Below are positions 18,622-19,902 of a stretch of DNA of 64,000 nt, piece by piece. The DNA is taken from the IMG/VR virus record IMGVR_UViG_3300035696_000035, positions 1 to 64,000 of that record, one strand, 5' to 3'. The stretch's first letter is position 1. The number at the start of each line of letters is the position of its first letter. The notes below the pieces were generated by a model. The model ran no database searches and was not told the DNA's origin. It worked only from the letters and a program-made list of their open reading frames with translations. The DNA is from a virus. The position numbers and the translations under genes are program-made.

Positions 18622-19902
18622 ATGGACTTCGTCAGCGTACGTGACCACATCAAGCAGAATGGCGTAATCCCGAAGAAAATCAAGACCGTCCTCAAGATCG
18701 CGACCCAGATCTACGAGAAGGTGCCCCGCAAGGCCGACAGCACCCTGCAGGTCGTCCTCAAGCTGATGAGCATCGCCGACAGCATCGAGAACTCGATCCA
18801 GACCAAGAAGACCGAGCTGTCAACCATCGTCGAGCGCCTGGACCTGGCGACGACGACCAACACCGTCTTTGCCTCGATGTTCTTCGGCACCAAGCTGCAG
18901 GAGCAGTTCGAGCTCAAGCGCTACTTCATGGACGGAGTGTCGGTCGTCGAGGCCTACAGCGAGGAGCACGGTAGGTTGCTCTTCGTCGAGCGGTGGGAGA
19001 AGCAGTACAGCCCGACCTTCTACCACACCAAGGGTTTCGACTTTGAGAAGATCCTCAGCCTGACCTGGGAGCTCTACGAGGGGCGCCTCCAGTTCGAGAT
19101 CAGCTGGGGCAAGTCGACCTTCGCCACGTTCTCAACCTTCGCCACGTTCTCAACCATCCAGAACCCGCTCTTCGGCTCAGACGCTGAACGGATGGAGCGC
19201 CTGGTTGAGCGCCATGCCCAATACGTACGGGACGGCAAGCCCAGGGCCTACATGTTCCATGGAGCCCCCGGCACGGGCAAGACATCGTTCGCTCTTGGGC
19301 TCGCTGGACGGCTGGGCAACCGCGTCCTCCGCATTGATGCCCGCAGCTTCTCGATGATCACTGTCGCCGAGATCGTCTTCATCATCGACGCGCTGAAACC
19401 CGACTTCATCATCGTTGACGACGTGGACAAGGCTGACGTCAACAGCAGCCTGCCCACCATCCTCAACATCATCCAAGAGATGAAGACCCACAAGACGACG
19501 ACGTCCCTCCTGTTGACCGCCAACGTTGTCGCCGGTTTCGACCACGGCTTGCTCCGTCCGGGCCGCATCGACACCTGGCTGGCGTTCGACGCGCCCGATA
19601 CCACGCAACGGATGCACATCATCCTCGGGTACCTGAAGCTGGCGGGTGTCAAGCCCGAGAAAGAAGTCGTCGCCAACTTTGTCAAGATCACCGAGGGCCT
19701 GACACAAGACTACCTCCGCGAGATCGCCGAGAGGCTCAAGTACGAGAGCGTCGAAGACGTTACCACGTTGATCCTCAACATGCGGAAGCTGTTGGGCAAG
19801 CCTGACCTCGACAAGAAAGAGAAGGAAGAGCAAGCCAAGCAGCACGTCAACAGTTCCAACGGTGCTGTCACCAATGGGAAGGCGACGACGCCCGTTAGCT
19901 GA
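18622..19902 (+). CDS. AAA+ ATPase (classical AAA clade; paralog of 42268..43806)
   Basis: Walker A GAPGTGKTS, Walker B FIIVDDVDK, sensor/Arg-finger region LLRPGRIDTW; AGGAG RBS; internal 18-bp tandem duplication (FATFSTFATFST). Confidence 0.8.
   Translation: MDFVSVRDHIKQNGVIPKKIKTVLKIATQIYEKVPRKADSTLQVVLKLMSIADSIENSIQTKKTELSTIVERLDLATTTNTVFASMFFGTKLQEQFELKRYFMDGVSVVEAYSEEHGRLLFVERWEKQYSPTFYHTKGFDFEKILSLTWELYEGRLQFEISWGKSTFATFSTFATFSTIQNPLFGSDAERMERLVERHAQYVRDGKPRAYMFHGAPGTGKTSFALGLAGRLGNRVLRIDARSFSMITVAEIVFIIDALKPDFIIVDDVDKADVNSSLPTILNIIQEMKTHKTTTSLLLTANVVAGFDHGLLRPGRIDTWLAFDAPDTTQRMHIILGYLKLAGVKPEKEVVANFVKITEGLTQDYLREIAERLKYESVEDVTTLILNMRKLLGKPDLDKKEKEEQAKQHVNSSNGAVTNGKATTPVS
19120..19155 (+). 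repeat. perfect 18-bp tandem duplication inside AAA+ gene
   Basis: TTCGCCACGTTCTCAACC x2 encoding FATFST x2. Confidence 0.6.

Follow-up and report, generated by a model that had tools for sequence, protein, structure and literature searches.

What do two AAA ATPases do in a virus when one of them lies beside a vault-like and a flotillin-like gene and the other beside a chaperonin? The question is raised by a stretch of 64,000 nucleotides (positions 1 to 64,000 of the IMG/VR virus record IMGVR_UViG_3300035696_000035), analyzed over its full length and called the window below. The window most plausibly represents part of the genome of a huge soil phage and not of a eukaryotic giant virus. The two proteins, AAA1 and AAA2, are encoded at the following positions.

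18622-19902, plus strand: AAA1, 426 amino acids (from the listing of open reading frames)
42268-43806, minus strand: AAA2, 0-frame product of 512 amino acids, ATG at 43806 (from the listing of open reading frames)

By analogy with the chaperones Bcs1 and YjoB, we propose, with a probability of about 0.5, that both are ATP-driven ring chaperones or remodelers that would not thread polypeptides. AAA2, in two forms, would act in folding or assembly, and AAA1 would be an accessory relative.

In AAA1, an N-terminal alpha/beta domain (residues ~1-185) is followed by one AAA module, the lid of which runs until residue ~395. Walker A is GAPGTGKT (residues 214-221), Walker B is FIIVDDVD (the DD at 266-267), and the second region of homology (SRH) reads LLRPGRID. 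AAA2 has a variable N-terminus, a conserved N-domain (residues ~60-235), an AAA module, a lid and an acidic tail, with Walker A GPPGTGKS (259-266), Walker B AVILDDFD (the DD at 311-312) and SRH LQRPGRID; its AlphaFold2 model has a predicted local distance difference test score (pLDDT) of 79. Reading frames and motifs are placed as in a preliminary description of this DNA, and the AAA2 tail, which it called strongly acidic, carries a net charge of -21. A longer AAA2 frame with a GTG start (to 44010) finds no support among the homologues.

The same description took the two proteins for a paralogous pair of the classical AAA clade, unless their similarity were confined to generic P-loop residues. 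Both match Pfam PF00004 (43.1 bits for AAA1 and 55.9 bits for AAA2, with a gathering score of 21.2). BLASTP aligns them directly with 29% identity across 144 residues (E 5e-16). A comparison by hhalign of the two family alignments, one with 35 relatives of AAA1 (the most distant at 27% identity) and one with 39 of AAA2, gives a probability of 99.9 and E 2.3e-31. It covers 296 columns, which start some 100 residues ahead of the core and extend through the lid, so that the similarity reaches well past the P-loop. With one common database size, the hidden Markov model (HMM) of the AAA1 family gives up to 128 bits on AAA2 members, up to 99 on single domains of solved AAA proteins and up to 93 on the FtsH-like and Cdc48-like proteins compared; the HMM of the AAA2 family gives up to 93 bits on AAA1 members and up to 46 on cellular AAA proteins. 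The highest-scoring solved relatives are p97/Cdc48, AFG2, NSF, Rpt and FtsH. The paralogy thus holds, with reciprocal scores above the outgroups: as far as profile comparison tells, AAA1 and AAA2 are each other's closest relatives, with a margin that is modest from the AAA1 side.

Within the classical clade, AAA1 and AAA2 form a derived branch. The catalytic Glu of the canonical hhhhDE Walker B is replaced by Asp in both families; DD occurs in all aligned AAA1 members except one (P0013, with DE) and in every AAA2 representative with a readable Walker B. Walker A and Walker B lie 44 residues apart. The spacing is 51 in the FtsH- and Cdc48-type proteins compared, and 40 in P0057, a Bcs1-like protein (Pfam Bcs1_N plus AAA) with ED in Walker B. 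The missing 7-residue stretch is the aromatic pore-loop 1, [FWY]-[VG]-G (MFVGVG, MWVGES and the like in FtsH/Cdc48). The region of pore-loop 2 is shortened as well, with 39-44 instead of 53-56 residues separating Walker B from the SRH arginines. On the other hand, the sensor-1 Asn and both SRH arginines are invariant (N301, R312 and R315 in the AAA1 family; N341, R352 and R355 in that of AAA2), and in the lid, the PD..R..IL pattern of classical AAA proteins is retained. In hhalign, the AAA1 family scores 148 with P0057 and 127 with FtsH, and the P0057 alignment is free of the pore-loop gap. Membership in the classical clade therefore stands on PF00004 and the SRH, but these are not typical unfoldases.

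These features bear on whether AAA1 and AAA2 are conventional unfoldases or segregases, similar to Cdc48, FtsH or PAN, that pull substrates through the pore and feed, for example, GroEL or a host protease. The top matches among solved structures (p97/Cdc48, AFG2, Rpt and FtsH) would fit such a role, as would the intact sensor-1 Asn and two-arginine SRH. The type II proteins Cdc48/p97, AFG2 and NSF also have in common with AAA1 and AAA2 the RPGR[IF]D form of the SRH and the lid pattern. p97 and the proteasomal ATPases carry docking tails, which the acidic AAA2 tail with its hydrophobic residue resembles; that residue is, however, better explained by the slippery CCCUUU discussed below. The type II proteins differ in their two tandem AAA domains, characteristic N-domains and, in the active domains, aromatic pore loops, whereas AAA1 and AAA2 each have one Walker A/B set and an N-domain that matches nothing. 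One type II domain, the D2 of NSF, does carry a catalytic-position Asp as well and has no known threading loops. FtsH is marked by transmembrane segments and a C-terminal M41 protease; on its NCBIfam model, with a cut-off of 600 bits, AAA1 and AAA2 reach only 29.6 and 41.6, and no match to Peptidase_M41 is found. With the aromatic motif of pore-loop 1 gone and the pore-loop-2 segment short in every family member, a single AAA domain, Asp at the catalytic position and no protease, double-psi-barrel or OB N-domain, a threading function appears very improbable.

The N-domains had been described as unique, and at the level of sequence this is correct: neither has a Pfam match or a sequence match in the PDB (profile searches of the PDB return noise), and, compared by themselves, the two are not significantly alike. 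In the models of both proteins, a helical hairpin is followed by a four-stranded antiparallel sheet, a helix, two strands and then the core, a predicted topology that recalls the published descriptions of Bcs1 and YjoB. The structure search against BFVD gives matches at the level of the core only, with TM-scores of 0.3-0.4, and many of the top structural neighbors are named 'BCS1'. Likewise, the hhalign match to P0057 covers the AAA core only.

Bcs1 and YjoB both have Asp at the catalytic position and nevertheless hydrolyze ATP; in each of them a beta-rich N-domain closes off a chamber in which folded clients are accommodated, and in Bcs1 the key pore-loop residues are not conserved (PMC9565160, PMC7994207). 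Bcs1, the mitochondrial translocase of the folded Rieske protein, and its giant-virus homologues have the same single classical AAA module after a beta-rich N-domain. Bcs1 shares with AAA1 and AAA2 the Asp in Walker B and a short segment between Walker A and Walker B without aromatic pore loop (PMC7994207). The Bcs1 family forms heptameric rings and has an N-terminal membrane anchor, whereas no hydrophobic N-terminal helix is evident in the sequence of AAA1 or AAA2. Further differences are Walker B (ED instead of DD), the stretch between Walker B and the SRH, which a long insert extends to 78 residues in Bcs1 (39-44 in AAA1 and AAA2), and the phage context of AAA1 and AAA2. YjoB of Bacillus subtilis (PDB 7W42), a hexameric chaperone with an internal chamber, likewise combines a unique N-domain with one classical AAA module in about 400 residues. 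It is an active ATPase with Asp at the catalytic position and has a holdase-like activity without threading (PMC9565160), as we propose for AAA1 and AAA2. On the other hand, its N-domain has no detectable sequence similarity to theirs, and YjoB, which serves Bacilli as a cellular stress protein, has neither tail isoforms nor a link to GroEL. We treat the likeness to Bcs1 and YjoB as a working analogy and not as family membership.

The place of AAA2 in the genome points toward folding. Its surroundings in the window, together with the methionine aminopeptidase MetAP mentioned below, are the following.

39991-41631, minus strand: phage GroEL (Pfam Cpn60_TCP1), the downstream neighbor of AAA2
41665-41949, minus strand: conserved small protein of 84-94 amino acids, probable start MATR at 41919, no Pfam match
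41984-42006, minus strand: strong terminator-like hairpin, 9-bp stem with eight G-C pairs and a T-rich tail
44676-45500, minus strand: TANGO2 (Pfam)
46085-46978, minus strand: ADP-ribosylglycohydrolase (Pfam)
20520-21263: MetAP (Pfam)

The order AAA2, small protein, GroEL is kept in all 16 independent related loci with enough sequence (L085-L094, L172, L188, L189 and L244-L246), at AAA2 identities of 34-76%. The position of AAA2 beside GroEL, noted in the preliminary description, is thus retained in every related locus examined, and the link between AAA2 and the chaperonin block is old and stable. The small protein, of 84-107 residues among relatives, lies directly upstream of GroEL at all related loci (with a gap of 33 nt in the window) and has the consensus MATR...TEFQLH...DFTE..LL...QQK..L..Y..G.vAvAW..G.Pv..vTK. 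It is a candidate chaperonin cofactor. As a GroES it was rejected (hhalign probability 0.2), being not GroES-like by sequence. More distant phage GroELs (39-47% identity) occur without AAA2, one of them with an ordinary RFC-type clamp loader upstream instead; a scan centered on GroEL recovered few loci. No sigma-70-like promoter was found around AAA2. A toolkit for proteostasis or remodeling, proposed earlier from AAA1, AAA2, GroEL and MetAP, is plausible from gene content and synteny, except that MetAP is linked to neither ATPase beyond ordinary gene order.

Just upstream of AAA2, the genes for TANGO2 and the ADP-ribosylglycohydrolase are conserved as a block in the window, L085, L188, L189 and L244-L246; TANGO2 is absent or decayed at some loci (for example, L093).

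A further feature of AAA2 is found near the end of the gene, where two elements can be placed.

42304-42310, minus strand: candidate -1 frameshift heptamer C_CCT_TTA, in phase, with an invariant CCCTTT
42104-42303, minus strand: -1 frame extension, an open frame downstream of the heptamer, with TGA at 42106-42104

In the window, the heptamer spans GAC CCT TTA (D-P-L, with P500 and L501 of 'DPLD'), 40 nt ahead of the 0-frame stop. The -1 frame is open for 68 codons and encodes a linker of six Gly and a K/R-rich tail (RSGGGGGGLRELKESDLKKFVKDAVKDTTPVPMNEAKVWKGVKKALKKRRKQAKLQLKKQLTKRKR) with 23 K+R; the predicted long isoform has about 567 residues. An in-phase C_CCT_TT[ACT] occurs 10-46 nt ahead of the stop in all nine independent loci that have acidic AAA2 tails with P[LF] (the window, L085, L086, L087, L188, L189, L244, L245 and L246), each time with a K/R-rich -1 open reading frame of 50-98 codons. 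At L189 and L246, the -1 frame opens precisely at the heptamer. In the DNA alignment, with a mean identity of 49%, CCCTTT makes up six of the seven invariant columns. The codons are avoided ones: TTA is used once among the 574 Leu codons of 17 window genes, the single occurrence being that of the heptamer, and CCT accounts for 8.8% of Pro codons in window genes. In-phase slippery heptamers occupy 4 of 6,872 codon positions. In distant homologues (P0155, P0159, P0165, P0166, P0180, P0197 and P0201), a basic tail follows in frame with the same [TK]W..[LVI][KR]..L[KR]K[KR] pattern, and the AAA2 proteins of L090 and L092 likewise end in an in-frame basic tail. The peptide motif 'DPF/DPL', present in 63 of 124 tails of the AAA2 family, is probably the nucleotide footprint of the slippery site. 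The -1 tails have no Pfam match.

Because the heptamer is conserved and in phase, its codons are rare, the -1 frame is open and K/R-rich, and homologues carry such tails in frame, a programmed -1 frameshift in AAA2 is likely. Normal termination would yield the 512-residue protein with its acidic tail, and a -1 shift at C_CCU_UUA would swap the last 11 residues for the Gly linker and a basic tail of 60-odd residues. The K/R-rich frame could instead be an independent small gene overlapping the end of AAA2, with CCCTTT a by-product of a Pro-Leu/Phe peptide motif. Gene callers did place separate small open reading frames in L244 and L246, and in the window an internal ATG of the -1 frame (MNEAKVW...) would in principle allow separate translation. 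No convincing conserved stimulatory hairpin was found after the slippery site; those that can be predicted there are modest, vary in their distance from it and have z-scores between +0.7 and -2.4 relative to mononucleotide shuffles. The place of the start codon of such a gene varies, however, between loci, and an ATG is missing from L188. A separate gene would also leave unexplained a heptamer that is invariant and in phase at nine of nine loci and built from avoided codons, the frames that open right at it in L189 and L246, and the fusion of a similar tail in frame in distant homologues. We consider a separate gene doubtful.

Frameshifting near the end of a gene has well-known precedents. The dnaX gene of E. 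coli, itself an AAA+ gene, makes tau and gamma by means of a slippery heptamer, and in the phage tail chaperones G and GT a frameshift gives a shared body with different C-termini. AAA2 has in common with both an X_XXY_YYZ heptamer near the gene end and, by prediction, two C-termini. In dnaX the shift truncates the product, whereas in AAA2 it would extend it by about 66 residues, and the heptamers differ (A_AAA_AAG in dnaX, C_CCU_UUN in AAA2).

The parallel with dnaX, together with the K/R-rich tail, which might bind nucleic acid, raises an alternative in which AAA1 and AAA2 act on DNA or the replisome, as a helicase loader, a clamp loader or another switch-type AAA+ protein. The automatic name of AAA2 in the source is 'DnaC', PHROG clamp-loader families are matched (E 1e-12 to 1e-8), the structural scores are RFC-like, the minimal core without pore loops resembles that of switch-type AAA+ proteins, and a FEN nuclease is encoded within the window. 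Pfam, on the other hand, returns PF00004 only, and the top PHROG (7485) is without known function. The SRH has the RPGR[IF]D of classical AAA proteins and not the SRC of clamp loaders, and the lid pattern is classical. By the marks of clamp-loader or DnaC-type AAA+ proteins, taken together (a family model above its cut-off, the SRC motif and initiator-specific insertions), AAA1 and AAA2 do not belong to that group. The conserved neighbors (GroEL, TANGO2 and the ADP-ribosylglycohydrolase) are none of them replicative. A role on DNA is thus unlikely, and the automatic labels 'DnaC' and 'adenylate kinase family enzyme' are unsupported for the AAA1/AAA2 family.

How, then, would AAA1 and AAA2 work as non-threading chaperones? 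Since Walker A, the sensor-1 Asn and both SRH arginines are kept, they would assemble as nucleotide-dependent rings. These rings would not thread or unfold polypeptides, given the loss of pore-loop 1 and the short pore-loop-2 segment. Like Bcs1 and YjoB, they would act on clients that are folded or partly folded, and hold, release or rearrange them. The fixed order of AAA2 with the small conserved protein and the phage GroEL suggests that AAA2 would serve the folding or assembly of phage proteins alongside GroEL, and its two tails might tune the composition of the ring or the choice of partner. AAA1 would be the accessory relative, placed next to the vault-like and flotillin-like genes by chance in the lineage of the window. 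A narrower version, in which AAA2 represents a phage-specific class of chambered chaperones similar to Bcs1 and YjoB, with two frameshift isoforms and working with GroEL and the small protein, is rather unlikely.

Several points weigh against the proposal of non-threading chaperones linked to GroEL. Bcs1_N (PF08740), which marks Bcs1 itself, has no Pfam match in AAA1 or AAA2 up to E 0.1. Aligned on their own by hhalign, the N-domains of the two families reach a probability of 3.6, over just a 21-column stretch with LWxxYxG. The replacement of Glu by Asp might mean very slow hydrolysis, as in a switch and not a motor. In the window, the hairpin at 41984-42006 falls between the -1 frame of AAA2 on one side and the small gene and GroEL on the other, and the interval between AAA2 and the small gene is the looser one, with genes inserted at some loci and the gene order retained. 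Because hairpin and inserted genes break the interval, the synteny of AAA2 and GroEL may reflect a conserved genome backbone and not a functional pairing.

The insertions in the interval between AAA2 and GroEL look mobile. A UvdE-like gene of 310 residues is found there in L087, L088, L090 and L092, and a GIY-YIG gene is inserted at L244 (5940-6692).

The surroundings of AAA1 are different. The relevant features are the following.

13020-16196, plus strand: protein similar to the major vault protein (MVP), with shoulder domain and vault repeats (Pfam)
16275-18197, plus strand: Band7/SPFH flotillin-like protein with a hydrophobic N-terminus (Pfam)
19117-19155, plus strand: 18-nt perfect tandem duplication (2.2 copies) within AAA1

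AAA1 had been described as embedded in a module of MVP and flotillin genes. This holds for the window and its closest relatives: among the loci listed, MVP, Band7 and AAA1 are adjacent and co-directional only in the window, L001/L002 and L168, and Band7 is the immediate upstream neighbor of AAA1 in the window, L002 and L168. It does not hold for six other AAA1 orthologues (L003, L005-L008 and L100), where neither MVP nor Band7 lies closer than 10 kb. No neighbor is common to all eight AAA1 loci. Conversely, MVP occurs mostly without Band7 or AAA1 among the matches listed, and MVP with Band7 occurs without AAA1 in L173, L175 and L187; at the syntenic site of L173, other small genes are found. 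MVP genes are present on at least 20 IMG/VR contigs of the phage group (L165-L184), usually without Band7. The place of AAA1 in the vault/flotillin module is thus lineage-specific and recent, and weak as evidence of function.

The pairing of an SPFH protein with a classical AAA protein is established for HflK/C and FtsH, and with this model (and that of the m-AAA protease and prohibitin) one could imagine that AAA1 partners Band7 and the MVP cage, and loads, remodels or disassembles a phage vault or a flotillin compartment. The adjacent, co-directional genes of the window, L001/L002 and L168 are what such a partnership would produce. The orthologues without MVP or Band7, the absence of a universal neighbor and the three MVP-Band7 loci without AAA1 speak against it, and AAA1 has neither a membrane anchor nor a protease domain. 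We regard the partnership as improbable and prefer to see in AAA1 an accessory relative of AAA2 and a putative ring chaperone.

The 18-nt duplication gives TFATFS-TFATFS in a loop of the AAA1 N-domain and is not present in any homologue of the family alignment. The MVP homologue has a Cys-rich N-terminal extension with a weak match to the DnaJ CXXCXGXG motif. The first viral MVPs, from gut phages, were described in a 2023 bioRxiv preprint (10.1101/2023.11.10.566534).

The two families are of unequal size. That of AAA1 has about 45 members in a collection of 5.8 billion proteins, and that of AAA2 has more than 365. With the AAA2 N-domain as query, 64 representative clusters are retrieved among 1.84 billion proteins, and all that score are of the AAA2 type; the full-length matches (~310-520 residues) have the domain order of AAA2. 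AAA1 and AAA2 occur together on one contig of 345,630 bp. Among 185,579 species genomes, there is one clear full-length homologue of AAA2, in a metagenome-assembled genome of the Kofleriaceae (Myxococcota) (L194 7974-9110, JANTGM010000027.1), with 27% identity and DD in Walker B. Its neighbors are ordinary bacterial genes, for a Ser/Thr kinase and for pyruvate carboxylase. This homologue may be a clue to the origin or to the host (Myxococcota). AAA1 and AAA2 are thus two diverged members of one AAA superfamily, nearly confined to huge phages. AAA proteins in general are a known superfamily; the families of AAA1 and AAA2 are uncharacterized, essentially restricted to phages, and novel in their N-domains, lost pore loops, fixed association with a chaperonin and probable recoding, and in the literature on huge phages, GroEL and AAA proteins we found no description of them.

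Among the many genes without known role in huge phages, AAA2 is one that a soil clade of them has conserved. A stripped-down AAA ATPase locked in order with a phage chaperonin points to a virus-encoded system for folding or assembly beyond GroEL alone. If the analogy is right, the Bcs1/YjoB-style design, without threading loops and with a catalytic Asp, reaches beyond mitochondria and Bacilli. At the conserved C_CCU_UUN site, programmed frameshifting can be tested directly; it would turn a strongly acidic tail into a strongly basic one. If true, AAA2 would be the first example of a recoded AAA chaperone and, after dnaX, the second AAA+ gene with a subunit composition set by frameshifting.

The assignment of the window to a huge phage is based on its endolysin, FEN nuclease and NinI-like phosphatase, on the packed small genes and on relatives that are IMG/VR contigs of 150-512 kb. 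The relatives of the two ATPases sit on viral and metagenome contigs of 150-536 kb. The GC content of the window is 57-67%, with a GC content at third codon positions of ~0.85 in real genes, and the small genes are tightly packed with frequent overlaps. A near DNA match to the window is absent from GenBank phages; at the protein level, matches to these phages are confined to the AAA core, with 23-31% identity. Besides the endolysin, the FEN-type exonuclease and the NinI-like phosphatase, the window encodes a UDP-galactopyranose mutase and glycosyltransferases. An open reading frame of 322 residues (58881-59849, minus strand) matches a transposase family of PHROG (phrog_10081, E 4e-23) but no family of Pfam. 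Genes for sugar nucleotides and glycosylation lie at 33200-36569 and 52615-53835 (two GT2-like glycosyltransferases, the UDP-galactopyranose mutase and a uridylyltransferase of the UDPGP family), a set that suggests phage-directed synthesis of galactofuranose glycans.

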